From Eledone cirrhosa (Eukaryota), in NCBI GenBank assembly GCA_964016885.1, contig OZ024742.1:182838001-182902000 (forward strand): a DNA stretch of 64,000 nucleotides. The letters run 5' to 3'. The position numbers were made by a program, and so were the translations under genes. The notes beneath the pieces were generated by a model. The model had not been told where the DNA came from, did not search any database, and was given only the letters and a program-made list of their open reading frames with translations. Shown one piece after another: positions 1 through 63,054 of this stretch (position 1 is its first letter; every line of letters starts with the position of its first letter).

Positions 1-260
1 ATGAAAGCAAAAATTAACTTCAACGGGACACCTTCATAACAAATTTCAATGAAAAACGGTGTTTGTGCTAAATATTAGTATAAAGAAGACAAGACACATG
101 TACCCTCCACCAGTTGGGAAATGTAAGTGGAGACGGATATTTTCGTGTGAGGAAAATGACTTGAGGTAGCGGACAGATTTGTTCATCTCGGAAGTAAACT
201 TATTAAAGATGCTACCTTCGATGCTGAAATAGATCAGAGGAGTGCGAAAGCGAGTCTTGC
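1..260 (+). pseudogene. Degraded RTE-clade LINE reverse transcriptase fragment, cut off by a SINE at ~257
   Basis: 160-260 translates LEVADRFVHLGSKLIKDATFDAEIDQRSAKASLA, matching the RTE RT C-terminal pattern (F.YLGS...D.EI..R.AKA). Confidence 0.65.
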
Positions 261-405
261 AGCATGGAGTTACGGGCCTTTATGATCTGCGTTCAAATCC
301 CGCCGAGGTTAACTTTGCCTTTCATCCTTACGGGGTCGATAAAATAAAGTACTAGTAATGCACTGGGAAAATTGCTGGCCTTGTACCAAAAGTAGAAACA
401 AGTAT
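257..405 (+). mobile_element. SINE family A copy (5'-truncated)
   Basis: Shares gttcaaatcccgccgaggttaactttgcctttcatccttacggggtcgataaaataaagtac with many copies in the window. Confidence 0.8.
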
Positions 406-918
406 TATTGTATATGCATATATACAATGATGGTAGCAGGCGAGCTTCCGTCTGTTTAGCTTGGTAAATAGCACTGTCCGTATATTTATTAATTTTTGCA
501 TTTTTGCTCGCTAGATTCTTCGTTCCATGTCGATTGTATGATCCAGTTCAACATTTTTGTTAAGATAATTATTTCAATCGATCTACATATACTTTTGGTC
601 CTTATTTCCGCAATATCTAGAGAGTAGACGATGCAATATATCCAAGCGGGATTTAAAATGGGAGCATAAAAGGACATAACTAAATACTTTCCATAATGTT
701 GTGTGATCTGCCATATACAAAAACAAAATATTCGAGAGTATACACGTGGTGATTTAGATAAGTTTTGCAAATATATATTTTTTGAAGATGGTGCTTCAGC
801 GTGGCCGAAAGTCAACAATTGAAATTAGTAAAGCAATGTGTGCTTAAATTAGGACAGAAGGTACTAGACTATGTATACTTCTGAGTGGGTTTACTGTGAC
901 AGTCTTTTTTCGAAAGAC

Positions 919-1022
919 GATTACGATGACAACGACGATGAAGATGGGGATGATGATGATGATGATGATGATCATGATGATGATCATGATGATGATAATA
1001 ATAAGAATATTATTAATAATGA
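919..1022. repeat. (GAT)n/(AAT)n microsatellite
   Basis: Direct inspection. Confidence 0.85.
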
Positions 1023-1790
1023 CAAAAACATATTTTATGTGATACAAAGAATAGAAACGAATAAAATAGACAAGTTTGCTTTTGGTAATTTTGATAGACG
1101 TAAAAAAAAATTAAATAGACTTGGAATATATTTATATATTTTTTCTTTGATTTTTTTTTCCTCTTTTGTTTGATGTTCAAAGGATAAATTTTGATTTTAT
1201 TGATTTTATTTCAGTTAAATTTACTTTAGTTATTTTTTTCTAATTTCATTAGTTTTATTTTCATTAATGTTATTTTATTTTGGCTTTAATTTTATTTTAT
1301 CACATCTCAACATTCAACGACAAATTGTTATTTCCCATCCTACTAAAATTGCTTCTCATATATTATATTTTTTTAACATAGTCCAATCATGGTTCACTGT
1401 GATTTACACTCTATTCCAATATTCGATTTATAATCTTTTATGTATTTTGTTCATGCCTTTCTGTTCTGTTTTTATAGTAATTATTTCAGTTTTGTTCCAA
1501 TTTTCCATTTTGTTGATGTCGCCATTTCTTGATGTACTTTTAATGTCTGCTCACATGAAAAGTGTTGATGATTGCCTTACATAACGTTATTAATTCTATA
1601 GCTTCTATGGATTATTTATTTTAAAACGAGTAAAAATATACTCTTTATATCCAATTATTCCCACAATTAGGTGTCAAAAAATAGATTACTGAAGCAGAAA
1701 TAAATGACTAGACTCTATGAAGTAGTTATGTTTTAAATATATACGATATGTTTATACATAAACACATCGTATATATAATATAATATGGTA

Positions 1791-1882
<92 letters not shown>

Positions 1883-1884
1883 TG

Positions 1885-2160
1885 ACGGCGCATGGCTTAG
1901 TGGTTAGAGCATTGTGAGTTCGATTCCCGGATCGGGTGGTATGTTGTGTCCTTGAGCTAGACACATTATTTAACGTTGCCCATTTCACTCGGCTCTTTAG
2001 CTGAGTGAAATGAGTAGTGACATCACTAGTACCAAGCTTTATCGGCTTTCGTCTTTCTCTTGAACGACATATAGGTGGCGTGTAGAGGGGAAACTGGTAT
2101 GCATGTTGACGAGACTTATACCTCGGAGAGGGAACCTTCTAGGTACAAATCCCATGAATG
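1885..2160 (+). mobile_element. SINE family B copy (tRNA-like head)
   Basis: A-box-like tggcttagtgg and B-box-like gagttcgattccc followed by ttgtgtccttgagc; related copies at 20378, 27340, 38450(-), 41182. Confidence 0.7.
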
Positions 2161-2231
2161 TGTATGAGTGTGTGTGGGCGCGCTGGCGTGTGTGTGTTTC
2201 TTACTACCGAAGTTATATATATATATTTATA

Positions 2232-2787
2232 CAAATTTAGACAAATCACAGAGGCAATAAACATAAATGAATTACAACCAAAATTAAATAGAAAACATGA
2301 GTGGAACAGCAACATCACAACTTACAATTAAGGACAAAAGGAAAATACGCACGCACATAGAACAAACAACTAACCAGTAACATGTAAATAAACAAATAAA
2401 TAAACGAATATAAAAACACACACAGACACCCGGATGTAACACATGCGCAAACTAAGCACACAACACACACACAAAAACAAGATGGCGTAGGACAGAACAA
2501 AGGAGAGGCACAAAAAACAAAGAAAAGAACCCCCAGTCACTGAAGAGGTCACAGAATGTGTGACGAAAGAACTTTGACAATATATAAACAACCATCTGGT
2601 TGTGGAACCAACCAACCAACCGGAAATTTATAAATTCCTAAATTTATAAATTTATTATAATAAATTGAAGTGAAAGCAACTGGTGCGTGTGTTTCTTATT
2701 GGCAACATGACCCTCACAAAGTATAACAATGTCGGTTTCAACACACGTTTTCAGATAAAGAATCTTGCTAAACAAATTCAGAAACGA
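2232..2787 (+). mobile_element. Solo pLTR-like remnant of an older sister PLE family (ORF 3' end + UTR + ORF 5' start)
   Basis: 2239-2331 encodes RQITEAININELQPKLNRKHEWNSN..* (young element: RQIREASEIEIRRPKLNRKNEWNNN). 2707-2787 encodes MTLTKYNNVGFNTRFQIKNLAKQIQKR (young: MTLPKYNNICFDTRFHIKNLAKLIHRR). A TA tract precedes it. Confidence 0.9.
2536..2578 (+). ncRNA. Minimal type-I hammerhead ribozyme motif
   Basis: gtca-CTGAAGA-g-gtcaca(gaatg)tgtgac-GAAA-gaac-TT-tgac: core boxes, 6-bp stem II, 4-bp stem I. Confidence 0.75.
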
Positions 2788-2797
2788 ATTAAATATA

Positions 2798-4156
2798 TCA
2801 TTATCTATAAAAGGCAGATTGTTGTTGTTGTATGTGTGTGTGCATGTTCCATGTTTATACATTTGCACAATTTCAAACCGATTCGACTCAAGGTCTGTAA
2901 GAATGTTTTAAATTGTCTAACTTGGGTCAACGACTATTTATTTCATTCAAACACCTACAATTATGGAAATAATCGATAAAACTAAATTCATGACGCTTTA
3001 CCCCTCTAATAGAATCTGATTACTTGTCTCTACTCCCCTTAAAATTCGATAAAACTACATACATGCTTACAAACTTCCTTTAGGAACGCCGAAGAGAGAG
3101 AGGAAACGTTTGTTTTTGAGTGTGGAACGGTCAAACATTTATTTACTTCAATGACAAAGAGAACTTATTACATTTCATACGAAACAACAATTATTCAAAA
3201 GCAACAGATAAATTTATTCAACAACAACAAAAATAGCGATAAATCTTTTTTTAAACCTCTCAACGAACGTGGAAGAAAGAAGTATCAGTTCATTTACTAT
3301 ACACAATAATATACTTTATGAGGTCACTAAACCTGCTAGAAACAGCAGCTAACTCTCCCCCATATCACACCACTCCCTACTGTCTTAAATTTAGAAAACA
3401 TCTCCTCTATGTGGTCACTAAACCTGCTAGAAACAGCTGCTACCCCCCCCCCTATCACACAACTCCCTACTGTCTTAAATTTAGAAACCATATCCTCTAT
3501 GAGGTCACTAAACCTGCTAGAAACAGCAGCTAACTCTCCCCCATATCACACCACTCCCTACTGTCTTAAATTTAGAAAACACATATCCTCTATGAGGTCA
3601 CTAAACCTGCTAGAAACAGCAGCTAACTCTCCCCTCTATCACATCACTCTCGACTGTCTTAAATTTAGAAACCATATCCTCTATGACGTCACTAAACCTG
3701 CTTGAAACAGCAGATAATTCTCCCCCATATCACACCACTCCCTACTGTCTTAAAATTAGAAAACACATATCCTCTATGAGGTCACTAAACCTGCTAGAAA
3801 CAGCAGCTAACTCTCCCCCATATCACACGCCTCCCTACTGTCTTAAATTTAGAAAATACACATTAGACAACCATGCAGAACAACTCTATCGCAGCTCTGT
3901 TGTTCGGCTGGCATCGACTACGCGCGTGTTGCGCAAATACTGTTAAACAATAAATTTCAACACTTCTTTGCACAGAGATAATATCCATAAGTGAAACTAC
4001 AATTGTCATTGCTGGCGCAGCTCCTGCTTCGGCAGTCCAGGTCTGCAATTCATTCACCCAGTGCCTGGCAGACAAAAAAGTGCTGCCATTAAATGGGTGG
4101 TGCAACCTAACTTTGGTAACTTACTGACCCCGAGCAACGCCAGGCTTTAATGCTAG
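2798..4156 (+). mobile_element. Non-autonomous Helitron carrying a minisatellite
   Basis: A|TC-attatctataaaagg 5' end; 3' GC-rich subterminal motif cccgagcaacgccagg then CTAG|T. Termini resemble those of the helicase-containing Helitron at 9816. Confidence 0.7.
3317..3862. repeat. Minisatellite, ~6 copies of a 90-93 bp unit
   Basis: Units start at about 3317, 3408, 3498, 3591, 3682 and 3775 (tatgaggtcactaaacctgctagaaacagc...). Confidence 0.95.
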
Positions 4157-11209: not shown

Positions 11210-13684
<2,475 letters not shown>

Positions 13685-14405: not shown

Positions 14406-14460
14406 TATATATATATATATATTATATATATATATAATATATATATATATATATTATATA

Positions 14461-14527
<67 letters not shown>

Positions 14528-14565
14528 ATTATATATACATATATATATATATTATATATATATAT

Positions 14566-14599
<34 letters not shown>

Positions 14600-14601
14600 A
14601 T

Positions 14602-14633
<32 letters not shown>

Positions 14634-14635
14634 AT

Positions 14636-14667
<32 letters not shown>

Positions 14668-14681
14668 ATTATAAATATATA

Positions 14682-14728
<47 letters not shown>

Positions 14729-14737
14729 TATTATATA

Positions 14738-14780
<43 letters not shown>

Positions 14781-14782
14781 AT

Positions 14783-14816
<34 letters not shown>

Positions 14817-14830
14817 ATTATATATATATA

Positions 14831-14904
<74 letters not shown>

Positions 14905-14978
14905 ATTATATATATATATAATATATATATATATATATAATATATATCTATATATATTATATATATATATTCTATATA
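14406..14978. repeat. Interrupted (TA)n array
   Basis: Direct inspection. Confidence 0.95.
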
Positions 14979-15695: not shown

Positions 15696-15788
<93 letters not shown>

Positions 15789-15824
15789 TATATATATATA
15801 TATAAATATATAAAATATATATAT

Positions 15825-15864
<40 letters not shown>

Positions 15865-15901
15865 ATATATATATATATATAAATATATAAAATATATATA
15901 T

Positions 15902-15933
<32 letters not shown>

Positions 15934-16006
15934 AATATATAAAATATATATTATATATATATATTGTATATATATATATATATTGTATATATATATATAT
16001 ATATAT

Positions 16007-16045
<39 letters not shown>

Positions 16046-16070
16046 AATATATATATATATATATTATATG

Positions 16071-16103
<33 letters not shown>

Positions 16104-16160
16104 ATATATATATATTATATATATATATTATATATATATATTATATATATATATTATATA

Positions 16161-16247
<87 letters not shown>
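15696..16247. repeat. Interrupted (TA)n array
   Basis: Direct inspection. Confidence 0.95.
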
Positions 16248-47184: not shown

Positions 47185-47470
47185 GAGACCCACTACATAC
47201 TTGGTACATTTGTTATCTATCTACTCTATACCTAGTGCATTTATTATCGAACCATAACATAGCTGGTACATTTGTTATCGATGCCCTACATACCTGATGC
47301 AGTTGCTACCAAGCCACTAGGTACCTAGTACATTTGTTATCGATCAACAATTCGCCTGGTACATAGATTCGATTCCCTACATATCTGGTGCATTTTGTAT
47401 TGCGCCGCAATGTACCTGGTGTATTTTTATCAATCCCCTGCATACATGGTACATTTGTTTTCGATCCCAG
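47185..47470. repeat. Degenerate ~30-bp minisatellite (tacatacctggtacatttgttatcgatcc)
   Basis: ggtacatttgttatcga recurs. Confidence 0.7.
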
Positions 47471-47920: not shown

Positions 47921-48621
47921 TGTATAAATCGAGAGATAAGCTGGGGCGAAAAAACAACTAGATACTGTAGGACATTTAGTCCGATATTTTCCTGTTTCTG
48001 CCGTTCTACTACCTGAGAAACAACTACTATCATATTGATTTCTAATGCTTGGAAAGGTCAAAATATTTGTGAGTGAAGCAGTCAATCAAATTGACTGCAA
48101 TATTTCATTGATACCTAGCTTATCGATAACAGTTGCTATAGCATTGAAATATATGCCAAATCGTTCAATCCCTCACCACCATAAGAAACAACAACAAAAG
48201 TAATCAATAAATAAACAGTGGCAAAACTATCCATAAATACAAGTTTGTTTTGTTTTGGTTTTGTATTTTATTTATCATAAGCGGTATCTTGTATGTTTCT
48301 AGTATTTCTCTAAAGCTGATTGTTAGTTCCGTTAGCACTATTGCTCTTATAATTACAGCTATAATGATTTCCATCAAATCTACTCCAAGTAACGTTATCA
48401 CGAAGATCTTGTGTTCTTTCTGGCACCGCAAATTATTACCTTGGCGCCATCAATTTTATCATGAATCATGCAAAAAGCAACATAAGTGTACACATAGCTC
48501 AAAATATTATCTGATCTTTGCAAATGAAACTACACCGCAAAGTAATACATACATATATACATACAATCACACATATACTTACAACTATATATATATATAC
48601 ACATATTCCTATGTTTATATA

Positions 48622-48664
<43 letters not shown>

Positions 48665-48869
48665 ATATTTGGGGAGGGTCATATTTGCGTAATATTGCCA
48701 GAATTAATAACAGAACACACTCACTGTTTGGTTGGTTTTCGCTTCTCGCTGTCTTTTATATATATATATCTGCGATCTAACTTACTCGGTCCTCAATGTT
48801 GCCATTGACTGACCGGCGGTCAAAAATAATACAGATACAATATAGACAAACACATATATATATAGTTTA

Positions 48870-48907
48870 CATAAATCTTTCGTTGCACATCTGCAACATC
48901 GTCAGTG
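48870..48907 (-). ncRNA. Hammerhead ribozyme motif (inverted copy)
   Basis: Reverse complement of 52122-52159. Confidence 0.7.
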
Positions 48908-49186
48908 GTGTTATATTCATTGTTCCTCCTGTTGTGTTGTATGTCTACGCCATTTTTTTTTTTTGTTCAGTCTGTCTATATATTTATTTATTTATTTGCT
49001 TGTTTGTTTATCTTATTTTATTTTGTCTTCTTTGCGCATGCGTTTGCGTGTGTGTATAGTGTTATGTGTGATGTGTGATGTGTGACTAGTGTGTATAGTG
49101 TTGTCTGCTGGGTGACTAGTGTGTGTTTATGTGCTTGTGTATGTATTTATTTATCTTATTTTATTTAATTTAATTTACTTATTTAT

Positions 49187-51715
49187 TTATACTTCTCTTA
49201 GGTCAGTGTTGTTTGTTTGGGTGTTGTTGTTGTTCCACTCATTCTTTCTGTTTAGCTTTGGTCTTCTAATTTCTATTTCACTGGCCTCTCTGATTTGCCT
49301 ATCTGCTGGGTCATTCCTATGTTTAGATATTATTCTAATTTCTATGTTGTCTATGTTACCGTCATGATGTTGTCTAGCATGTTCGTATAGTACTGACCCG
49401 TTTTTTCGTCCTTTTAGTTCCCCCCAGTGTTGGTCTATCCTTTCACCTATGCTACGAGCTGTCTCACCTATGTATGTTGTTGTCGTGTTTCTGCAAGTAC
49501 CCTCTGTACATCTTATGCTATAGACTACGTTTCTAGTTTTACAGTTTATCCGGGGGTTCACCTTACATATGATACATTTCCTATTGGTACAGTGGGTTTT
49601 CTTAAAAGGGTAGGTTTTGCTGATCAGGGATTTTATGGTGGTTCCTGGCTTTTCTACCACCTTTATTTTTAAGTGGGTCTTTCTCAGGGCCTTTCTACAC
49701 TGGTTAGCTAATTTCCCTCCAGGGGTGGCGTCCACAAACATGACACTCTGATATCTCTGGTTGTCGTACCATGATGTGGCCTTCCCTATCTTATGTCTAG
49801 CCCTATCTAAGCTATTCCATGATTTGCTCCTGTATAGTGGGCAAATTCCTTTCATGTCCAGTTCTATGAGGGTCTTATACTTTTCCATGGCTCCTTCGTA
49901 TACTCTGACTCTGTCTCTTTGGTTGTAGCCAGAGAACTGCATGCGGTTGATGAAGTGTTGGATGTGTCCTTCCATTTCTGTTGGGTCGCACATGCTGGAC
50001 ACATTCTTCATCACTCGTACCAAATCTGCGATCAGAATATTAAACTTAGCACTACTGGACATTGCTGAGTTTTTGAGTATCAGGTATTTGGAGGCCATGG
50101 GTTTAGCATAGTGTGAGTGGAGAATTTGGGCTCTCTCGTCTGTAGTGTTAATCCAGAGTTCTGTGTCTAATACAGGTAGTCTATTGTTAGGGTGTTTGGA
50201 AGGGAAGTCTATAGTTACAGTTATACTCTGGTGTATGGAATTAGCTATCTGCTGGATGCTTTCCATCGTGCTACGTTCTAAATCAAACTTGTTAGTGCTC
50301 TCTAGTGGGGGTGTTCTTATAACTATATTGATATCGTCTACATAACGAGAGTACATGATGAGGTCTATGGAGCTTTCATTAAGGAGATCTTTAAGTCTCC
50401 TTTCCCACCATACCATGAAAAGGTTGGCAACATCGCCAGCTATGCTGACGCCGATGGCTGCTCCCTCATTTTGGGTGTAGATTTTCTCATTGAACTTAAA
50501 TATGTGGCCCTTTAGGGTAGTTTTGATACTAGCCCCTATTGCATGTGCGACCATTTTTCTTACCTGATCAGTGTTTTGGGGGGTCCGTATAGCTTTGGTC
50601 CACCCAATCCACCTTCCTATGGGAGTCTTTTTAGCCATTGAGGTTATGGTGGGGGGTCTACCTCTTATAGGTCTACTAGGGCAGAAACATCTAAGGTCAT
50701 GGCTGTCTAGGTAGTCAGTGTCGTAGGTAAGTCTAAGTAGGAGGCCCAGTTCGTCTGTGTCGACGTCGCAGAACTCCACCTCACTCTCAATGATCATCTC
50801 CACACATCTTTTCACAGCAAAATCAATGTTAATGGATGGGTACAGTGACACCACATCCATGCTGCCTATTATGCAGTTGGATAGGCTCCTGTTTTTGTTG
50901 CACTCACTGATTCTGCTGAGGAGGTCCTCTGTACTTTCACATACATCTGGGGACATCTTGATTATGGGGCGTATAACCATTGAGAGGAAGTAGGAGATCC
51001 TGTAGTTGCTAGCTATATTAGCTCCGCATACAGGTCTTGTTGGTGGTCCTATTGTCGGGTCGTCGACTGTCTTGTGGTCTTTGCGGAGCCCATACAAGGG
51101 TGGTATGCCATTGTTAGACGCCTGGAAGTTGTTGGCAGTGCGTCTGCTTGGCTTTAGGATGTCAGTCCACATCATCATGTGAGCGTTGAGGATTTTTTCT
51201 CTCCCATCGTGTGTTAGTTGTGCAACTTCGCTCGTGTTGGTGATGTGGGGTTGCATTGCCTCGATGTAGTTCGGCATGCTATCTATTGACATCCTACCAG
51301 ACTTATCTGTGGGTAGACACACTACCTCACCATCCCTTGTGCGCTGCTTGAGGCTAACCAAGCCTTCTACAGGTTTTATCCCAAGTTGTTGGGCCTCTGG
51401 TCTGCTCTGTCTCATAGTGTACCTGTCTACTACTTGTCTAATCTTATTTCTAGCTATGGTGAACTGTGCCTCCGTCTCGTCATCTATTTGTTGTGGTATG
51501 CAAACTCTTTTATTAAAGGGTAACCTCGTAGGATAGATATTACCCATCTTATATGTTTTGTCAGCTGGGTTGAAAAATAGTTTCTCTAAGGGGTTGTCGT
51601 TATTTCTATCGTCATAGTTGTGTGTGTTGCTATTATTGTTATCATGGTGGTTGTTGTTGTTTCTATCCTTAGCATTAATATTATTATTGTTATGATTGCT
51701 AGATGTATTATTGTT
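49187..51715 (-). pseudogene. 5'-truncated PLE RT-GIY-YIG ORF (intact from the Asn tract to the stop)
   Basis: Same protein as the C-terminal ~843 aa of the full ORFs except I->T (WINTTDER). The tracked start MPICW(V) comes from the junction. Confidence 0.9.
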
Positions 51716-52121
51716 GACCCAGCAGATAGGCAAATCAGAGAGGCCAGTGAAATAGAAATTAGAAGACCAAAGCTAAACAGAAAGAATGAGTGGAACAACA
51801 ACAACACCCAAACAAACAACACTGACCTAAGAGAAGTATAAATAAATAAGTAAATTAAATTAAATAAAATAAGATAAATAAATACATACACAAGCACATA
51901 AACACACACTAGTCACCCAGCAGACAACACTATACACACTAGTCACACATCACACATCACACATAACACTATACACACACGCAAACGCATGCGCAAAGAA
52001 GACAAAATAAAATAAGATAAACAAACAAGCAAATAAATAAATAAATATATAGACAGACTGAACAAAAAAAAAAAAATGGCGTAGACATACAACACAACAG
52101 GAGGAACAATGAATATAACAC

Positions 52122-52159
52122 CACTGACGATGTTGCAGATGTGCAACGAAAGATTTATG
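52122..52159 (+). ncRNA. Atypical minimal hammerhead ribozyme motif in pLTR 1
   Basis: ca-CTGACGA-t-gttgca(gatg)tgcaac-GAAA-gatt-TA-tg. Confidence 0.7.
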
Positions 52160-52346
52160 TAAACTATATATATATGTGTTTGTCTATATTGTATCTGTAT
52201 TATTTTTGACCGCCGGTCAGTCAATGGCAACATTGAGGACCGAGTAAGTTAGATCGCAGATATATATATATAAAAGACAGCGAGAAGCGAAAACCAACCA
52301 AACAGTGAGTGTGTTCTGTTATTAATTCTGGCAATATTACGCAAAT

Positions 52347-55300
52347 ATGACCCTCCCCAAATATAACAATATCTGTTTCGACACACGATTTCATATAAAA
52401 AACCTCGCAAAACTAATTCATCGCCGCTATGGCATTAGCTTGTGCCAAGCTGAAAGGTTATTGAAAGACACTGTTTTCTGTTATATAAAAACTACAATAA
52501 CAACAGAACAAATCCGCTTCTTAAAACACTGTGTTTCCTCCAAAACATACACAACAAACATATCAAAACAAGTAAATAATTTATTATTGAACAAAACACA
52601 AGCTGAACGGCTAAAACACACAATAACAGTTAATATGAAAAGAACAACATACACAAAAGTCAACGCACTCTACAGACAAAAACGCATCAACGGTAAGGAA
52701 ATCCGAAATCTCATCACAGCAAACGAGAGAGATGACTTCATGAGCGTCATCCGACGCGAAACGAAATATGCTCAAAACGAATGCTGTAGGCATTTCAAGA
52801 AGAAATTAGAATGGATGAATAAGAAAAAACTACAAGAAAGGAAAATCGAATATTCTCAAAAATACCCAGATAACATCGACAACATCCGTATGAGTGATGT
52901 AAAACTACCGGAAGAATTTACCAATGACCACACAGTAAATATCTATGGGAACACTTTAATCAGTGAACAAGAACAACAAATCCTAAAGTTACCACCAAAA
53001 TTTGCCATCTACAAAAAGATTAATCCTATGGAATGCAAAACGGAGCTGGAAAAGTGTTTCACAAAAATACGTTGGAATGCAAAGGTAAACAACAACAACA
53101 ACAATAATAACGGTAGTAGTAATATAAACAATAACTCTGGGTATAGAAATAACAGCCATAACCATAACAATGGCAGGAAAGTGAGAAATAGTGATAATGG
53201 TAATAATACTAGCGATAGACAGAACAACAACAACCACAATAATAATAATAATAGAAACGTTAACCACAGACACAGCAACAGTGACCACAGTAGTAATAAC
53301 GGTAACAATACGAACAACAACAACAACAATAACCACAGTGGTAATAATGGAAATAGTACATGTAGCAACATCAACAAAAACAAGAAACATAATAATAGTA
53401 ACAACCACAATGGTAGAAATAGCAGTAACAACAACAATAACGGTGAAGTAAACAACAATACATCTAGCAATCATAACAATAATAATATTAATGCTAAGGA
53501 TAGAAACAACAACAACCACCATGATAACAATAATAGCAACACACACAACTATGACGATAGAAATAACGACAACCCCTTAGAGAAACTATTTTTCAACCCA
53601 GCTGACAAAACATATAAGATGGGTAATATCTATCCTACGAGGTTACCCTTTAATAAAAGAGTTTGCATACCACAACAAATAGATGACGAGACGGAGGCAC
53701 AGTTCACCATAGCTAGAAATAAGATTAGACAAGTAGTAGACAGGTACACTATGAGACAGAGCAGACCAGAGGCCCAACAACTTGGGATAAAACCTGTAGA
53801 AGGCTTGGTTAGCCTCAAGCAGCGCACAAGGGATGGTGAGGTAGTGTGTCTACCCACAGATAAGTCTGGTAGGATGTCAATAGATAGCATGCCGAACTAC
53901 ATCGAGGCAATGCAACCCCACATCACCAACACGAGCGAAGTTGCACAACTAACACACGATGGGAGAGAAAAAATCCTCAACGCTCACATGATGATGTGGA
54001 CTGACATCCTAAAGCCAAGCAGACGCACTGCCAACAACTTCCAGGCGTCTAACAATGGCATACCACCCTTGTATGGGCTCCGCAAAGACCACAAGACAGT
54101 CGACGACCCGACAATAGGACCACCAACAAGACCTGTATGCGGAGCTAATATAGCTAGCAACTACAGGATCTCCTACTTCCTCTCAATGGTTATACGCCCC
54201 ATAATCAAGATGTCCCCAGATGTATGTGAAAGTACAGAGGACCTCCTCAGCAGAATCAGTGAGTGCAACAAAAACAGGAGCCTATCCAACTGCATAATAG
54301 GCAGCATGGATGTGGTGTCACTGTACCCATCCATTAACATTGATTTTGCTGTGAAAAGATGTGTGGAGATGATCATTGAGAGTGAGGTGGAGTTCTGCGA
54401 CGTCGACACAGACGAACTGGGCCTCCTACTTAGACTTACCTACGACACTGACTACCTAGACAGCCATGACCTTAGATGTTTCTGCCCTAGTAGACCTATA
54501 AGAGGTAGACCCCCCACCATAACCTCAATGGCTAAAAAGACTCCCATAGGAAGGTGGATTGGGTGGACCAAAGCTATACGGACCCCCCAAAACACTGATC
54601 AGGTAAGAAAAATGGTCGCACATGCAATAGGGGCTAGTATCAAAACTACCCTAAAGGGCCACATATTTAAGTTCAATGAGAAAATCTACACCCAAAATGA
54701 GGGAGCAGCCATCGGCGTCAGCATAGCTGGCGATGTTGCCAACCTTTTCATGGTATGGTGGGAAAGGAGACTTAAAGATCTCCTTAATGAAAGCTCCATA
54801 GACCTCATCATGTACTCTCGTTATGTAGACGATATCAATATAGTTATAAGAACACCCCCACTAGAGAGCACTAACAAGTTTGATTTAGAACGTAGCACGA
54901 TGGAAAGCATCCAGCAGATAGCTAATTCCATACACCAGAGTATAACTGTAACTATAGACTTCCCTTCCAAACACCCTAACAATAGACTACCTGTATTAGA
55001 CACAGAACTCTGGATTAACACTATAGACGAGAGAGCCCAAATTCTCCACTCACACTATGCTAAACCCATGGCCTCCAAATACCTGATACTCAAAAACTCA
55101 GCAATGTCCAGTAGTGCTAAGTTTAATATTCTGATCGCAGATTTGGTACGAGTGATGAAGAATGTGTCCAGCATGTGCGACCCAACAGAAATGGAAGGAC
55201 ACATCCAACACTTCATCAACCGCATGCAGTTCTCTGGCTACAACCAAAGAGACAGAGTCAGAGTATACGAAGGAGCCATGGAAAAGTATAAGACCCTCAT

Positions 55301-55979
55301 AGAACTGGACATGAAAGGAATTTGCCCACTATACAGGAGCAAATCATGGAATAGCTTAGATAGGGCTAGACATAAGATAGGGAAGGCCACATCATGGTAC
55401 GACAACCAGAGATATCAGAGTGTCATGTTTGTGGACGCCACCCCTGGAGGGAAATTAGCTAACCAGTGTAGAAAGGCCCTGAGAAAGACCCACTTAAAAA
55501 TAAAGGTGGTAGAAAAGCCAGGAACCACCATAAAATCCCTGATCAGCAAAACCTACCCTTTTAAGAAAACCCACTGTACCAATAGGAAATGTATCATATG
55601 TAAGGTGAACCCCCGGATAAACTGTAAAACTAGAAACGTAGTCTATAGCATAAGATGTACAGAGGGTACTTGCAGAAACACGACAACAACATACATAGGT
55701 GAGACAGCTCGTAGCATAGGTGAAAGGATAGACCAACACTGGGGGGAACTAAAAGGACGAAAAAACGGGTCAGTACTATACGAACATGCTAGACAACATC
55801 ATGACGGTAACATAGACAACATAGAAATTAGAATAATATCTAAACATAGGAATGACCCAGCAGATAGGCAAATCAGAGAGGCCAGTGAAATAGAAATTAG
55901 AAGACCAAAGCTAAACAGAAAGAATGAGTGGAACAACAACAACACCCAAACAAACAACACTGACCTAAGAGAAGTATAA
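52347..55979 (+). CDS. PLE polyprotein, 1210 aa: basic N-terminal domain, Asn-rich insert, reverse transcriptase, Cys-rich linker, GIY-YIG endonuclease
   Basis: TDKSG, LYGLRKDHK, RPV, SMDVVSLYPSI, QNEGAAIG, RYVDD, LPVLD; C-x4-C-x2-C linker; VVY..C...C...YIGETAR...R...H...H...E...LNR. The Cys linker suggests a Neptune/Nematis-type PLE (not certain). Confidence 0.97.
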   Translation: MTLPKYNNICFDTRFHIKNLAKLIHRRYGISLCQAERLLKDTVFCYIKTTITTEQIRFLKHCVSSKTYTTNISKQVNNLLLNKTQAERLKHTITVNMKRTTYTKVNALYRQKRINGKEIRNLITANERDDFMSVIRRETKYAQNECCRHFKKKLEWMNKKKLQERKIEYSQKYPDNIDNIRMSDVKLPEEFTNDHTVNIYGNTLISEQEQQILKLPPKFAIYKKINPMECKTELEKCFTKIRWNAKVNNNNNNNNGSSNINNNSGYRNNSHNHNNGRKVRNSDNGNNTSDRQNNNNHNNNNNRNVNHRHSNSDHSSNNGNNTNNNNNNNHSGNNGNSTCSNINKNKKHNNSNNHNGRNSSNNNNNGEVNNNTSSNHNNNNINAKDRNNNNHHDNNNSNTHNYDDRNNDNPLEKLFFNPADKTYKMGNIYPTRLPFNKRVCIPQQIDDETEAQFTIARNKIRQVVDRYTMRQSRPEAQQLGIKPVEGLVSLKQRTRDGEVVCLPTDKSGRMSIDSMPNYIEAMQPHITNTSEVAQLTHDGREKILNAHMMMWTDILKPSRRTANNFQASNNGIPPLYGLRKDHKTVDDPTIGPPTRPVCGANIASNYRISYFLSMVIRPIIKMSPDVCESTEDLLSRISECNKNRSLSNCIIGSMDVVSLYPSINIDFAVKRCVEMIIESEVEFCDVDTDELGLLLRLTYDTDYLDSHDLRCFCPSRPIRGRPPTITSMAKKTPIGRWIGWTKAIRTPQNTDQVRKMVAHAIGASIKTTLKGHIFKFNEKIYTQNEGAAIGVSIAGDVANLFMVWWERRLKDLLNESSIDLIMYSRYVDDINIVIRTPPLESTNKFDLERSTMESIQQIANSIHQSITVTIDFPSKHPNNRLPVLDTELWINTIDERAQILHSHYAKPMASKYLILKNSAMSSSAKFNILIADLVRVMKNVSSMCDPTEMEGHIQHFINRMQFSGYNQRDRVRVYEGAMEKYKTLIELDMKGICPLYRSKSWNSLDRARHKIGKATSWYDNQRYQSVMFVDATPGGKLANQCRKALRKTHLKIKVVEKPGTTIKSLISKTYPFKKTHCTNRKCIICKVNPRINCKTRNVVYSIRCTEGTCRNTTTTYIGETARSIGERIDQHWGELKGRKNGSVLYEHARQHHDGNIDNIEIRIISKHRNDPADRQIREASEIEIRRPKLNRKNEWNNNNTQTNNTDLREV

Positions 55980-56258
55980 ATAAATAAGTAAATTAAATTA
56001 AATAAAATAAGATAAATAAATACATACACAAGCACATAAACACACACTAGTCACCCAGCAGACAACACTATACACACTAGTCACACATCACACATCACAC
56101 ATAACACTATACACACACGCAAACGCATGCGCAAAGAAGACAAAATAAAATAAGATAAACAAACAAGCAAATAAATAAATAAATATATAGACAGACTGAA
56201 CAAAAAAAAAAAATGGCGTAGACATACAACACAACAGGAGGAACAATGAATATAACAC

Positions 56259-56296
56259 CACTGACGATGTTGCAGATGTGCAACGAAAGATTTATG
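56259..56296 (+). ncRNA. Hammerhead ribozyme motif in spacer/pLTR 2
   Basis: Identical to 52122-52159. Confidence 0.7.
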
Positions 56297-56483
56297 TAAA
56301 CTATATATATATGTGTTTGTCTATATTGTATCTGTATTATTTTTGACCGCCGGTCAGTCAATGGCAACATTGAGGACCGAGTAAGTTAGATCGCAGATAT
56401 ATATATATAAAAGACAGCGAGAAGCGAAAACCAACCAAACAGTGAGTGTGTTCTGTTATTAATTCTGGCAATATTACGCAAAT

Positions 56484-59400
56484 ATGACCCTCCCCAAATA
56501 TAACAATATCTGTTTCGACACACGATTTCATATAAAAAACCTCGCAAAACTAATTCATCGCCGCTATGGCATTAGCTTGTGCCAAGCTGAAAGGTTATTG
56601 AAAGACACTGTTTTCTGTTATATAAAAACTACAATAACAACAGAACAAATCCGCTTCTTAAAACACTGTGTTTCCTCCAAAACATACACAACAAACATAT
56701 CAAAACAAGTAAATAATTTATTATTGAACAAAACACAAGCTGAACGGCTAAAACACACAATAACAGTTAATATGAAAAGAACAACATACACAAAAGTCAA
56801 CGCACTCTACAGACAAAAACGCATCAACGGTAAGGAAATCCGAAATCTCATCACAGCAAACGAGAGAGATGACTTCATGAGCGTCATCCGACGCGAAACG
56901 AAATATGCTCAAAACGAATGCTGTAGGCATTTCAAGAAGAAATTAGAATGGATGAATAAGAAAAAACTACAAGAAAGGAAAATCGAATATTCTCAAAAAT
57001 ACCCAGATAACATCGACAACATCCGTATGAGTGATGTAAAACTACCGGAAGAATTTACCAATGACCACACAGTAAATATCTATGGGAACACTTTAATCAG
57101 TGAACAAGAACAACAAATCCTAAAGTTACCACCAAAATTTGCCATCTACAAAAAGATTAATCCTATGGAATGCAAAACGGAGCTGGAAAAGTGTTTCACA
57201 AAAATACGTTGGAATGCAAAGGTAAACAACAACAACAACAATAATAACGGTAGTAGTAATATAAACAATAACTCTGGGTATAGAAATAACAGCCATAACC
57301 ATAACAATGGCAGGAAAGTGAGAAATAGTGATAATGGTAATAATACTAGCGATAGACAGAACAACAACAACCACAATAATAATAATAATAGAAACGTTAA
57401 CCACAGACACAGCAACAGTGACCACAGTAGTAATAACGGTAACAATACGAACAACAACAACAACAATAACCACAGTGGTAATAATGGAAATAGTACATGT
57501 AGCAACATCAACAAAAACAAGAAACATAATAATAGTAACAACCACAATGGTAGAAATAGCAGTAACAACAACAATAACGGTGAAGTAAACAACAATACAT
57601 CTAGCAATCATAACAATAATAATATTAATGCTAAGGATAGAAACAACAACAACCACCATGATAACAATAATAGCAACACACACAACTATGACGATAGAAA
57701 TAACGACAACCCCTTAGAGAAACTATTTTTCAACCCAGCTGACAAAACATATAAGATGGGTAATATCTATCCTACGAGGTTACCCTTTAATAAAAGAGTT
57801 TGCATACCACAACAAATAGATGACGAGACGGAGGCACAGTTCACCATAGCTAGAAATAAGATTAGACAAGTAGTAGACAGGTACACTATGAGACAGAGCA
57901 GACCAGAGGCCCAACAACTTGGGATAAAACCTGTAGAAGGCTTGGTTAGCCTCAAGCAGCGCACAAGGGATGGTGAGGTAGTGTGTCTACCCACAGATAA
58001 GTCTGGTAGGATGTCAATAGATAGCATGCCGAACTACATCGAGGCAATGCAACCCCACATCACCAACACGAGCGAAGTTGCACAACTAACACACGATGGG
58101 AGAGAAAAAATCCTCAACGCTCACATGATGATGTGGACTGACATCCTAAAGCCAAGCAGACGCACTGCCAACAACTTCCAGGCGTCTAACAATGGCATAC
58201 CACCCTTGTATGGGCTCCGCAAAGACCACAAGACAGTCGACGACCCGACAATAGGACCACCAACAAGACCTGTATGCGGAGCTAATATAGCTAGCAACTA
58301 CAGGATCTCCTACTTCCTCTCAATGGTTATACGCCCCATAATCAAGATGTCCCCAGATGTATGTGAAAGTACAGAGGACCTCCTCAGCAGAATCAGTGAG
58401 TGCAACAAAAACAGGAGCCTATCCAACTGCATAATAGGCAGCATGGATGTGGTGTCACTGTACCCATCCATTAACATTGATTTTGCTGTGAAAAGATGTG
58501 TGGAGATGATCATTGAGAGTGAGGTGGAGTTCTGCGACGTCGACACAGACGAACTGGGCCTCCTACTTAGACTTACCTACGACACTGACTACCTAGACAG
58601 CCATGACCTTAGATGTTTCTGCCCTAGTAGACCTATAAGAGGTAGACCCCCCACCATAACCTCAATGGCTAAAAAGACTCCCATAGGAAGGTGGATTGGG
58701 TGGACCAAAGCTATACGGACCCCCCAAAACACTGATCAGGTAAGAAAAATGGTCGCACATGCAATAGGGGCTAGTATCAAAACTACCCTAAAGGGCCACA
58801 TATTTAAGTTCAATGAGAAAATCTACACCCAAAATGAGGGAGCAGCCATCGGCGTCAGCATAGCTGGCGATGTTGCCAACCTTTTCATGGTATGGTGGGA
58901 AAGGAGACTTAAAGATCTCCTTAATGAAAGCTCCATAGACCTCATCATGTACTCTCGTTATGTAGACGATATCAATATAGTTATAAGAACACCCCCACTA
59001 GAGAGCACTAACAAGTTTGATTTAGAACGTAGCACGATGGAAAGCATCCAGCAGATAGCTAATTCCATACACCAGAGTATAACTGTAACTATAGACTTCC
59101 CTTCCAAACACCCTAACAATAGACTACCTGTATTAGACACAGAACTCTGGATTAACACTATAGACGAGAGAGCCCAAATTCTCCACTCACACTATGCTAA
59201 ACCCATGGCCTCCAAATACCTGATACTCAAAAACTCAGCAATGTCCAGTAGTGCTAAGTTTAATATTCTGATCGCAGATTTGGTACGAGTGATGAAGAAT
59301 GTGTCCAGCATGTGCGACCCAACAGAAATGGAAGGACACATCCAACACTTCATCAACCGCATGCAGTTCTCTGGCTACAACCAAAGAGACAGAGTCAGAG

Positions 59401-60116
59401 TATACGAAGGAGCCATGGAAAAGTATAAGACCCTCATAGAACTGGACATGAAAGGAATTTGCCCACTATACAGGAGCAAATCATGGAATAGCTTAGATAG
59501 GGCTAGACATAAGATAGGGAAGGCCACATCATGGTACGACAACCAGAGATATCAGAGTGTCATGTTTGTGGACGCCACCCCTGGAGGGAAATTAGCTAAC
59601 CAGTGTAGAAAGGCCCTGAGAAAGACCCACTTAAAAATAAAGGTGGTAGAAAAGCCAGGAACCACCATAAAATCCCTGATCAGCAAAACCTACCCTTTTA
59701 AGAAAACCCACTGTACCAATAGGAAATGTATCATATGTAAGGTGAACCCCCGGATAAACTGTAAAACTAGAAACGTAGTCTATAGCATAAGATGTACAGA
59801 GGGTACTTGCAGAAACACGACAACAACATACATAGGTGAGACAGCTCGTAGCATAGGTGAAAGGATAGACCAACACTGGGGGGAACTAAAAGGACGAAAA
59901 AACGGGTCAGTACTATACGAACATGCTAGACAACATCATGACGGTAACATAGACAACATAGAAATTAGAATAATATCTAAACATAGGAATGACCCAGCAG
60001 ATAGGCAAATCAGAGAGGCCAGTGAAATAGAAATTAGAAGACCAAAGCTAAACAGAAAGAATGAGTGGAACAACAACAACACCCAAACAAACAACACTGA
60101 CCTAAGAGAAGTATAA
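56484..60116 (+). CDS. Second, identical PLE polyprotein (1210 aa)
   Basis: Same translation as 52347-55979; offset 4137 bp. Confidence 0.97.
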   Translation: MTLPKYNNICFDTRFHIKNLAKLIHRRYGISLCQAERLLKDTVFCYIKTTITTEQIRFLKHCVSSKTYTTNISKQVNNLLLNKTQAERLKHTITVNMKRTTYTKVNALYRQKRINGKEIRNLITANERDDFMSVIRRETKYAQNECCRHFKKKLEWMNKKKLQERKIEYSQKYPDNIDNIRMSDVKLPEEFTNDHTVNIYGNTLISEQEQQILKLPPKFAIYKKINPMECKTELEKCFTKIRWNAKVNNNNNNNNGSSNINNNSGYRNNSHNHNNGRKVRNSDNGNNTSDRQNNNNHNNNNNRNVNHRHSNSDHSSNNGNNTNNNNNNNHSGNNGNSTCSNINKNKKHNNSNNHNGRNSSNNNNNGEVNNNTSSNHNNNNINAKDRNNNNHHDNNNSNTHNYDDRNNDNPLEKLFFNPADKTYKMGNIYPTRLPFNKRVCIPQQIDDETEAQFTIARNKIRQVVDRYTMRQSRPEAQQLGIKPVEGLVSLKQRTRDGEVVCLPTDKSGRMSIDSMPNYIEAMQPHITNTSEVAQLTHDGREKILNAHMMMWTDILKPSRRTANNFQASNNGIPPLYGLRKDHKTVDDPTIGPPTRPVCGANIASNYRISYFLSMVIRPIIKMSPDVCESTEDLLSRISECNKNRSLSNCIIGSMDVVSLYPSINIDFAVKRCVEMIIESEVEFCDVDTDELGLLLRLTYDTDYLDSHDLRCFCPSRPIRGRPPTITSMAKKTPIGRWIGWTKAIRTPQNTDQVRKMVAHAIGASIKTTLKGHIFKFNEKIYTQNEGAAIGVSIAGDVANLFMVWWERRLKDLLNESSIDLIMYSRYVDDINIVIRTPPLESTNKFDLERSTMESIQQIANSIHQSITVTIDFPSKHPNNRLPVLDTELWINTIDERAQILHSHYAKPMASKYLILKNSAMSSSAKFNILIADLVRVMKNVSSMCDPTEMEGHIQHFINRMQFSGYNQRDRVRVYEGAMEKYKTLIELDMKGICPLYRSKSWNSLDRARHKIGKATSWYDNQRYQSVMFVDATPGGKLANQCRKALRKTHLKIKVVEKPGTTIKSLISKTYPFKKTHCTNRKCIICKVNPRINCKTRNVVYSIRCTEGTCRNTTTTYIGETARSIGERIDQHWGELKGRKNGSVLYEHARQHHDGNIDNIEIRIISKHRNDPADRQIREASEIEIRRPKLNRKNEWNNNNTQTNNTDLREV

Positions 60117-60393
60117 ATAAATAAGTAAATTAAATTAAATAAAATAAGATAAATAAATACATACACAAGCACATAAACACACACTAGTCACCCAGCAGAC
60201 AACACTATACACACTAGTCACACATCACACATCACACATAACACTATACACACACGCAAACGCATGCGCAAAGAAGACAAAATAAAATAAGATAAACAAA
60301 CAAGCAAATAAATAAATAAATATATAGACAGACTGAACAAAAAAAAAATGGCGTAGACATACAACACAACAGGAGGAACAATGAATATAACAC

Positions 60394-60431
60394 CACTGAC
60401 GATGTTGCAGATGTGCAACGAAAGATTTATG
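60394..60431 (+). ncRNA. Hammerhead ribozyme motif in terminal pLTR 3
   Basis: Identical to 52122-52159. Confidence 0.7.
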
Positions 60432-60618
60432 TAAACTATATATATATGTGTTTGTCTATATTGTATCTGTATTATTTTTGACCGCCGGTCAGTCAATGGC
60501 AACATTGAGGACCGAGTAAGTTAGATCGCAGATATATATATATAAAAGACAGCGAGAAGCGAAAACCAACCAAACAGTGAGTGTGTTCTGTTATTAATTC
60601 TGGCAATATTACGCAAAT

Positions 60619-60682
60619 ATGACCCTCCCCAAATATAACAATATCTGTTTCGACACACGATTTCATATAAAAAACCTCGCAA

Positions 60683-60687
<5 letters not shown>
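60619..60687 (+). pseudogene. 3' 'tail': first ~23 codons of a third ORF copy, ending in (TA)n
   Basis: atgaccctccccaaa...ctcgcaaaacta followed by (TA)n. Confidence 0.9.
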
Positions 60688-60721
<34 letters not shown>

Positions 60722-63054
60722 TATAAATATACACGAGCGAGCATATATGTCCACACACACATGAACACACACACACATTTTATATAAATAGGGGCGGGTC
60801 AGCGTTTACAATTTTTAAACTACGCTCCGACAATCACACGCAAACATTTACGAACCCAAATAAATATATGAAATGAATACCAACTACACACACAAATGGC
60901 AAATAGAATCTATAACTAAATCAGATACTGGCAATCAAAGACATCCGGTACATAACGAAAGGAATTTCTCGTCTAAACACAGGACCTCAAAATAACGATG
61001 TACTACAGACCCAGGACTTTACCACAATCTTTACCCAAATTTTATTTAGTTATTATTAATCCAGTTAACCAGTTATATAATTGCAATCCCTGTACTTGCA
61101 TATCTTACTATTATTGGGCTAAATGGCGTGTTGAATCGTTAGATCGTCGGACTTCACTGCATTTCTTCAACTTCTTTACGTCTGATTACTAATCCCGCCG
61201 AGGTCAAGTTTGAATTTCATCCTTCTGTGGTCGATAAAATAAACTACTAGCTAAGCACTGGGGTTGATTTAACCAACTTTTAGTATTGATTTTATGACTA
61301 AATTAGATTATTGATGTTGTTGTTATTAATTTCCTGAGATCCTACTGTTTGTGTAAGGCGTTAAAAAAGAAATAGCTGTCCAGCCTTTGCGGATAGAAAA
61401 GGCGTTTCGTTTTTTTCAAACGGCAACTCAAGTATGGGATCTTGCTGCAACACTATACTAGTTCCCGATTCTATAAGATAGTGTTAAGATATTTAATGTA
61501 TTAAATATTTTAACCAGAAATTGATATACAGTGATAATATACACAATATGAATATTGTTTTCATTTTCCAGCAAGTACAGGAAATAGCGACTGATGTATT
61601 TCCGTGTAATTCTGACCTCTCTTGCGAAACTTAGTTTTCACCACCCTAGGCGAGATTAGTGATGAACAATTCATTACGTGTATACACTCATGCAATATCG
61701 ATTTTTCTTACTATGTGGTTAAATTTAGAAAGTCGACTATTTTCGATGGGCTGAAATTTATATTACAACCCAACCCCAAAAGGATTCTAAAGGAATAAAA
61801 AAAAAAACAATGAATTACAGTAATATTGCAGATATCTTCATCAAAACTTAGTCCATACTACCAACAACGAATGAATAAAACCGATATCTCTACATGCGTA
61901 CTTTGCCTTTTATCCTTTCGAGATCGATAAAAAGGGTACCAGTCTAGAAAATTGGGGCCCTCTTTCTCACTCTACCCTTCACTCACTAGAAGAATCTATT
62001 GTGTTCAGACGTGGCTAAATGGACTCCATGGCGTTTTTAAATAACCGAAGAAATGCCGTATGTCAATATGCTACCCCTACAACTTCATCAGGAGTTACGG
62101 GTCCATACCATACCACATGCGTACATAAGAACATAACAGCGTAGACAAATTCATTCCCTCGCTGTAACATTTATGTTGAGTATAATCTTTTGCTTCACAA
62201 ACGTTGAACTGTTTTCCTTGAAGAAATAGAGTTCACCTTTACATAGGATACATGGAAATAGGCAATCTATTTTTGTAAAAAAGTAAAGAATATTTTTCAT
62301 GGGATTATACGTTTAAATATGGTATTATTCGTTGTAAATTTATCAGCGTTGACAAATAGAATTGTTTCGGGATGCAACCCACTTGAAATCAATAAATAAA
62401 ATTTGCATGAATATACATTTTCTTTTTAGGTTAGTGTTGATATACTTAATAGACCGTCTAAACCCGGCTTCGATTCTAAGGAACAAAGTCCACCGATTTT
62501 AAAAGGTTCCTAATTAAGTTAAAATCTTCCAACAAATATGATATAAAAACTACATAAGTTACTATCTTAGTAATGAAATGATTAATAATTGTAGTAAATC
62601 CTGCAAAGTTCTTCATTAATTAATTGAAGTGGAGTATATTTCCTTAGAAATAGGTTCATGATTGAGAATATGTGTGGACTGGTAAAAAGCTAACTAGAAA
62701 TAATTATAATTATGTGATGAGAAAAAAGACATTATTAGTCAATGATTGTATTACGGCAAATATTAGCAAATATTGGCAAAATGCAAGCAAGTAGAGAAAA
62801 TAGGGTAATAAACAACAAAAATATTTCATAGATTAATTATATCACATTTGCAGATTTAGTCTTAATTACCCAACTGTTGTGTAGTGATTTTTATTGTATT
62901 TTCCCCGCACGTGTATCAATTTTCTTTATTATCGTCATGAAATATGGCTGCATCAAAGGTGGGAGATATGAAAATAGATGTTTCATTTCTCGGGAGAGAG
63001 AAAAGAAGAAAAAAAAGAAACCGAGCTAATTCTAATTGAAACAGTAGTAAGAAT

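Follow-up and report, generated by a model that had tools for sequence, protein, structure and literature searches.

Tandem two-armed insertions of a Penelope-like element in Eledone cirrhosa point to repeated copying of a unit-length template, possibly an RNA circle

A 64,000-nucleotide stretch of the Eledone cirrhosa genome (GenBank assembly GCA_964016885.1, contig OZ024742.1, forward-strand positions 182,838,001 to 182,902,000; this whole stretch is referred to as the window) carries an insertion of a Penelope-like element (PLE) in which tandem units, each with an open reading frame (ORF) and a hammerhead ribozyme motif, are joined head to head to a shorter inverted copy. How PLEs regenerate such tandems and what role the hammerhead plays in this has been a standing question since at least 2008 (PMC2377424, PMC8557442). 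From the window locus and other copies of the family we conclude that the arms of such an insertion very probably arose jointly in a single event, by means of two primers and repeated copying of an effectively endless unit-length template. Our best single guess for that template, held at slightly less than even probability, is an RNA circle made by the predicted ribozyme. The architecture, the circle model (2014) and the two start sites (2024) were already known, while the genome-wide test of lengths and haplotypes is new.

With unit position 1 set at the ATG at window position 52347, the 4137-bp unit comprises the ORF (1-3633) and a hammerhead core at 3915; the features are located in Table 1. 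Comparison of the window with itself using BLAST aligned 51715-56552 to 55853-60687 with 99.94% identity and, on the opposite strand, 48657-51718 to 53448-56509 with 99.90% identity over 3062 bp. The tandem periods in the direct arm are 4137 and 4135, and the sole difference between its units is the length of one poly(A) run; in the inverted arm, a single internal substitution (50142) is joined by two mismatches no more than 9 bases from the junction. The inverted arm terminates at +26 and the direct arm at +69 of an ORF start, each running into (TA)n. The original prediction had described about 2.2 nearly identical tandem units, an inverted copy and two complete ORFs, and all of its coordinates hold. 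It had also stated that there is no target site duplication; none can indeed be read, but absence does not follow, because the flanks on both sides are TA repeats. Its view that two ORFs in one insertion exceed the usual PLE layout has to be given up, as tandems of 'two or more ORFs' have been described (PMC8557442).

The family is young, abundant and recently active. Exact matches number 5042 for the 29-base word that closes the arm and 187 for the 93-base read-through into the ORF, and the frame is open in 42 of the 72 full units examined, which agrees with the recent activity originally suspected. Exact matching is biased to the young lineage, and older subfamilies are more numerous; the hammerhead core word gave 14,890 hits and the downstream word 12,610. 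A genome-wide survival curve based on pattern counts was dropped because older subfamilies match unevenly. The tandem structure is a family trait and not an assembly slip. The largest array (C6:30.04 Mb, L193-L195, G000:C6:30043477-30070762) holds 6.6 units over 27 kb in a single insertion with three full units per arm, donor-type arrays of 2-3.3 units per arm exist, with arms reaching 3.3 units, the periods are array-specific (3991-4147), and public contigs contain the end-to-start unit junction and show the family with a 3' depth bias. Other loci are thus multi-unit as well, and the possibility raised with the original prediction, that all other loci hold single units, falls away. At three further loci (L189:5129-5193, L191:6951-7024, L192:695-768) the first ~74 ORF bases alone occur as a diverged short repeat, 83-87% identical and with common substitutions, which perhaps represents the terminus of a relative that is older or non-autonomous.

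The length statistics are based on the first 100 of the 187 exact 93-base matches, which yielded 89 arms, each of a full unit or more. For every arm the unit number and the 5' end were entered by hand, one value being corrected for a 9-nt duplication; these statistics do not build on the first nine extra loci, mostly chosen for multiple hits. One full unit is present in 79 arms, two in 9 and three in 1. The length beyond the first ATG fits a single exponential with a mean of 1.8 kb (Kolmogorov-Smirnov p 0.35). Twenty 5' ends fall in the untranslated region (UTR; 21.9 expected), 59 in the upstream ORF, 10 at two or more units (8.7 expected) and one at three or more (0.9 expected), such that 69 of the 89 arms extend back past the UTR. 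At the predicted cut site, 88 of 90 passes continue and two stop within 10 nt (1.05 expected). Clustering of 5' ends in 13-, 21- and 31-nt windows was no higher than simulated (p 0.08, 0.35 and 0.75, respectively), and a group of five ends at unit 2827-2839 is not significant. Sixteen extra hand-picked arms, chosen with known multi-unit loci skipped and analysed separately, gave a result that agrees. Exponentially distributed 5' ends without pile-up mean that the 'pseudo-long terminal repeat' is a random stump of the preceding turn.

At their other end the arms stop at fixed sites. Short-tail arms end at +19 to +32, mostly at +26, and long-tail arms at +69 to +85, and two-armed insertions pair one with the other in 57 of 58 cases in one set and in all 29 of another (86/87). 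This strict pairing explains the one-sided 'tail' at genome scale and upholds the earlier proposal of priming from both strands of a TA target. It matches the two internal start sites of the reverse transcriptase (RT) on the RNA and the nicking of both strands that were demonstrated in vitro for PAc, a Poseidon element of Anolis (Frangieh et al., 2024, PMC11167929). Of 37 unpaired arms, 7 bear a tail fragment in inverted orientation that is just a few bases long. Overlaps at the inversion junction are mostly 0-5 bp, the lengths of paired arms are uncorrelated, and none of 74 junctions compared recurs between loci, apart from one local duplicate.

The units of one insertion share a haplotype. 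At family-polymorphic sites, 75 tandem pairs showed 17 differences compared to 129 for units from other loci, and 99 opposite-arm pairs showed 9 compared to 162; several of these 17 and 9 differences are gap placement at a 9-nt duplication. After masking, there were 96 cases of a family-shared variant present in every turn and 6 of one confined to a subset, five of these 6 at CpG, and locus-private variants occurred in all turns 39 times. Among the 68 full units, 27 haplotype strings can be distinguished, some of them by missing data alone, which means that new variants spread over all turns in many lineages. Divergence is equal for tandem pairs (92/95,116) and opposite-arm pairs (97/110,578), suggesting that the two arms and the tandem units of one insertion were born together. 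Compared with the window unit, ten completely read multi-turn arrays carry 24 substitutions in all turns, 19 in one turn and 4 in a subset; the 6.6-unit array has five single-turn substitutions and one common only to the two junction-side pieces. At C1:14.38 Mb (L053-L054), one frameshift is present in all three full turns (552-aa frame), which suggests a dead template mobilised in trans. Three private variants were used to look for donors; the loci recovered were siblings or other lineages in which the mutation had recurred, and no donor was found in which the variant is restricted to a single unit. In combination with the 5' ends, the single haplotype per insertion bears out the multi-round copying of one unit that had been proposed from the window alone. 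At C1:181.30 Mb (L101, L102, L187), a UTR deletion of ~143 bp between direct repeats occurs in all three turns of one arm and is missing from the other, which could reflect two templates or later exchange.

The following course of events would account for these observations. A (TA)n target would be nicked and two runs of reverse transcription primed on opposite strands in one event, while the RNA, cut by the predicted hammerhead and re-ligated, would form a unit-length circle. Each run would copy this circle round and round until it drops off at random, leaving two arms back to back, each ending at a fixed site in the ORF start and both with one haplotype. A circle accounts for all data without need of an efficient jump. 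A route from PLE hammerhead to circle to more-than-unit copies was proposed tentatively by Cervera and de la Peña (2014, PMC4209133), in terms nearly identical to the hypothesis of the original prediction.

As originally predicted, the putative hammerhead is carried once per unit in both arms, with CUGACGA..GAAA cores starting at 52124, 56261 and 60396 (+) and at 48905 (-). The motif consists of a 2-bp helix I, CUGACGA, a bulged U, a 6-bp helix II, GAAA and a near-palindromic helix III, and by eye it matches the minimal hammerhead of Drosophila virilis type (PMC4209133), the predicted cut falling after 52157 in agreement with the original prediction. An Rfam scan reported no hammerhead and only chance microRNA matches on TA repeats, and a free fold of the motif gives back helix II alone. 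The register and the pairs around the cut are kept in older subfamilies (GAAA-GAACUU/UG versus GAAA-GAUUUA/UG, the slash marking the cut); as these copies were selected via the core, the flanks alone are informative. None of 16 hammerhead-region haplotypes has a copy-specific insertion at the cut. In one lineage a 9-nt duplication lies across the predicted cut (window 52155-52163). A degenerate pattern gave 28 hits, almost all single mutants, in which helix II shows no covariation. The hammerheads of two distant relatives (of 19) are of the same type with different palindromes. Other hammerhead-like cores, not related to those of the family, occur near insertions at L122:7102-7520 and L120:5627.

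Several points weigh against the circle. Helix I has 2 bp, supplemented by a distal helix that is weak at -1.7 kcal/mol, and helix III of the predicted dimer is at -1.8; minimal PLE hammerheads cleave poorly (PMC4209133), and a circle requires a transcript across two hammerheads. By strict pattern, the motif lies downstream of 2 of 19 related metagenome ORFs and at neither of the two closest. Naiad and most Chlamys elements are without canonical hammerheads and yet form the same tandems and inversions (PMC8557442), and insertion by PAc in vitro was unchanged by hammerhead mutants (PMC11167929). In our data, stops at unit 3845-3872 number 4 in 85 passes, against an expectation of 1.3 (p about 0.05 for a window picked post hoc); this excess, beside the poly(A) run, may be a pause, microhomology or the 5' end of a linear RNA. 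Finally, four multi-turn loci (L102, L135, L143 and C2:74.89 Mb) carry variants in only some turns, so later exchange, mixed templates or polishing errors do occur.

The most serious competitor, doubtful in our estimation yet far from negligible, is a linear, terminally redundant RNA on which the RT shifts the cDNA from the 5' end to its match close to the 3' end, either of that RNA or of a sister molecule, similar to retroviral strand transfer or telomerase translocation, with the hammerhead being incidental. Such re-priming explains seamless single-haplotype tandems equally well and is the better fit to the hammerhead-less Naiads and the dispensable hammerhead of PAc. The known D. virilis transcript of 2947 nt, which starts in the upstream repeat (PMC2377424), would suit it as well. 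The same applies to the small stop excess at unit 3845-3872, to the telomerases as best folds of the protein model and to the long insertion at the position of the telomerase insertion in the fingers domain (IFD). However, about 95% of transfers would have to succeed, none of the three window sizes is enriched for 5' ends, and no RNase H that could release the cDNA is known from PLE RTs.

We regard it as improbable that multi-unit loci are transcribed as long read-through RNAs and copied once, as sketched for PAc, whose authors favour a multi-copy mRNA template (PMC11167929). Suitable donor arrays of 2-3.3 units per arm exist, and at C2:74.89 Mb a private variant is present in the first turn of both arms and not in the next turn. 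Under this scheme, however, arrays could only shrink with each generation and new variants would be expected in one turn only, in contrast to the 96 all-turn and 6 subset cases among shared variants. Moreover, nine of the ten arms with at least two units, including the three-unit arm (at 3662), end upstream of the hammerhead, eight of them in the ORF, so that longer donors would be needed, and neither promoter pile-up nor inherited junctions were seen.

Unequal crossover after insertion, or duplication in the assembly, is very unlikely. The patterns at L135 and L102 would be compatible with later duplication, but crossover between the repeats would place 5' ends in the UTR rather than in the upstream ORF, where 59 of 89 lie with 10 more beyond, and this doubt attached to the original prediction is thereby removed. 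Arms of two or more units are not in excess, and the array-specific periods, the single-turn variants and the end-to-start junction in public contigs also speak against it. Least probable of all is copying at the DNA level from a circularised cDNA before or during integration, which would likewise put one haplotype in all turns, as with the C1:14.38 Mb frameshift, but does not fit the fixed arm ends, whose sites correspond in kind to the RNA initiation sites demonstrated for PAc, nor the recurrence of at least one C1:14.38 Mb variant in all covering turns of two sibling loci, which marks it as inherited and not a first-round error.

The predicted protein was analysed with respect to its place among PLEs. 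Its structural model has a predicted local distance difference test score (pLDDT) of 90.6, and its top four fold matches in the PDB are telomerase RTs (E 3e-9 to 2e-7, template modelling (TM) score 0.31-0.35). The Pfam RVT_1 match is weak and under the cut-off, a Pfam scan of the full ORF reported no match, GIY-YIG included, and a PDB sequence search with the protein found nothing beyond weak RT motif hits. The GIY-YIG/CCHH motifs were found by alignment, and the pattern is present in 57 of 80 homologs; Atlas clusters are listed with GIY-YIG in 26-58% of members. In total 93 homologs were found, the best being a protein named from Octopus vulgaris (68% identity), and a profile search returned 2862 representatives at E<=1e-30, among which there may be other PLEs. 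The span between RT motifs A and B measures 126-136 aa in all 80 aligned homologs compared to 58-60 in four distant canonical-type hits. In a 25-row tree with midpoint root only and without named references, a long branch (100/100) lies between 23 long-span RTs and two short-span hits. At the canonical DKG motif the lineage has DKS or DKT, the window protein carrying DKS and 5 of 80 homologs sharing DKT. An invariant KDHK motif is typical of this lineage of PLE RTs with long insertion and C-terminal nuclease; RKDHK was not found in the ORFs of the Craig supplement (PMC8557442), which comprises Naiad, Chlamys and Hydra only and not the canonical clades. The conserved ~70-aa insertion, DKS/DKT and KDHK possibly mark an unnamed clade of C-terminal-nuclease PLEs.

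Table 1. Features of the insertion, with positions in the window.
Feature	Position	Strand	Remarks
Left (TA)n-rich target flank	48586..48660	.	Fuses with short-tail end
Inverted arm, 3062 bp	48657..51718	-	Runs from unit ~1102 across UTR into following ORF start; short-tail end at +26
Minimal type I hammerhead motif, inverted arm	48870..48907	-	Coordinates via offset from + copy
ORF copy, 5'-truncated yet open	49187..51718	-	RT and endonuclease part
Head-to-head inversion junction	51715..51718	.	Arms overlap by 4 bp
Direct arm, 8973 bp (2.17 units)	51715..60687	+	Unit 3507 (inside ORF end) to +69 (long-tail end)
Minimal type I hammerhead motif 1	52122..52159	+	Predicted cut after 52157
Intact ORF 1, 1210 aa	52347..55979	+	N-terminal domain, Asn-rich insert, telomerase-like RT, Cys linker, GIY-YIG endonuclease
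Asn-rich low-complexity insert	53076..53585	+	Approximate bounds; most homologs have none or an unrelated one
RT motif A to motif B span, 128 aa	54309..54695	+	At telomerase IFD position; ~70 aa more than four canonical-type PLE hits
CxxxxCxxC linker and GIY-YIG-type endonuclease	55575..55930 (end approximate)	+	VVY..C..C..YIGET, R, H, H, E, N; compared by eye with Fig. S2, PMC8557442
Hammerhead copy 2	56259..56296	+
Intact ORF 2, 1210 aa	56484..60116	+	Same as ORF 1
Hammerhead copy 3	60394..60431	+
43-bp 'tail', +27 to +69	60645..60687	+	Present at direct-arm end only
Right (TA)n flank	60686..60731	.

Just upstream of the hammerhead, a AAAATGGCG word (window 52071-52083), which we take to be YY1-like, is kept in older subfamilies, and downstream of it (window 52256-52315) a TATA-like run and a GTGAGT donor-like word are found; these are candidates for promoter and intron signals. 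Elsewhere in the window there are very long degenerate (TA)n arrays (11212-13684, 14406-14978 and 15696-16247; maximum 2.5 kb) and tandem repeats of 93/184 bp (3309-3855; the 93-bp repeat in 6 copies) and 31/62 bp (47190-47465).

Taken as a whole, and only tentatively, the element may be an autonomous protein-coding animal retrotransposon that replicates by target-primed reverse transcription in rolling-circle mode, with a 4.1-kb RNA circle made by the ribozyme as template and two runs per insertion, and that belongs to an undescribed, widespread Penelope lineage in which a telomerase-sized IFD may aid repeated copying. The genome data alone narrow the template to one that is effectively endless, of a single haplotype and twice primed, leaving the circle or seamless re-priming as mechanisms; if true, either would connect PLEs with the circles of retrozymes or with repeat addition as in telomerase. 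The window element is less surprising than originally held, but it is an unusually good system for the question of PLE tandem regeneration. A literature search with most subscription papers and Repbase outside its coverage found neither a length, haplotype or population-level test of the circle model nor a description of a C-terminal-endonuclease clade with IFD.

Judged by its sequence, the window element is an endonuclease-bearing (EN+) PLE: it combines a telomerase-related RT, a GIY-YIG domain with CCHH in the same ORF, a partial tandem, an inverted 5' copy, a one-sided tail and a type I hammerhead motif. Its closest counterparts are the canonical elements of Nematis/Neptune type (Craig et al., 2021, PMC8557442), with which it shares the single ORF, the telomerase-like RT and C-terminal GIY-YIG, partial tandems with at least two ORFs, an inverted 5' copy, a one-sided tail, (TA)n bias and a hammerhead. 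By eye, the CX2-5CxxC linker is found here too, with the short Nematis spacing and without the longer Neptune insert. Nematis and Neptune, however, have no IFD between RT3(A) and RT4(B) and carry DKG, in contrast to the 128-aa span (compared with the short spans of Fig. S1) and DKS of the window element; also unlike them, the window family has a 160-aa Asn-rich insert and a tail measuring 43-59 bp, for which there are two long end points. On these characters it is a PLE whose nuclease is Nematis-like but which lacks one of the features that define the Nematis clade. An RT insertion at the A-B position is described there only in Naiad/Chlamys, TERT and some Coprina. Naiad identity, considered for the long span, was rejected because the endonuclease is C-terminal here and N-terminal in Naiad/Chlamys, and the Hydra clade (no CCHH, CxCX5C linker, no IFD, <3 kb) is ruled out by the CCHH-type endonuclease, the long span and the 4.1-kb length.

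With regard to mechanism, PAc (PMC11167929) shares tandem loci, AT-rich targets, nicking and extension of both strands and a tail defined by two internal start sites near the beginning of the ORF, but it belongs to another clade, Poseidon, without Cys linker, and the ends of the window family coincide with 2-4 nt of TA homology. In the D. virilis hammerhead variant one finds the same arrangement of 2-bp helix I, 6-bp helix II, bulged base and palindromic helix III, and the accessible text of the 2014 circle paper (PMC4209133) gives no length or haplotype statistics, which the window family supplies. Non-LTR (long terminal repeat) retrozymes likewise form tandem units with a type I hammerhead; their circles were shown experimentally and PLEs were proposed as their mobilisers (PMC7229834, PMC7761336, bioRxiv 10.64898/2026.07.22.740005). 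Their units, however, are non-coding and of 150-970 nt with canonical hammerheads, whereas the window unit is 4.1 kb, coding, equipped with a minimal hammerhead and known from sequence alone, and its 1210-aa ORF rules out membership of that class. Recently active Penelope families are listed in O. vulgaris without their structure (PMC13282606). Penelope of D. virilis also has a full copy preceded by a variably truncated copy and flanking inverted repeats (PMC2377424), and Adineta Pen2-4 (PMC3846280) has Asn-rich ORF inserts as in the window family; in this literature, tandem formation was named as unexplained. Compared with these two systems, the window family has arms of up to 3.3 units, and its thousands of young copies permit statistics.

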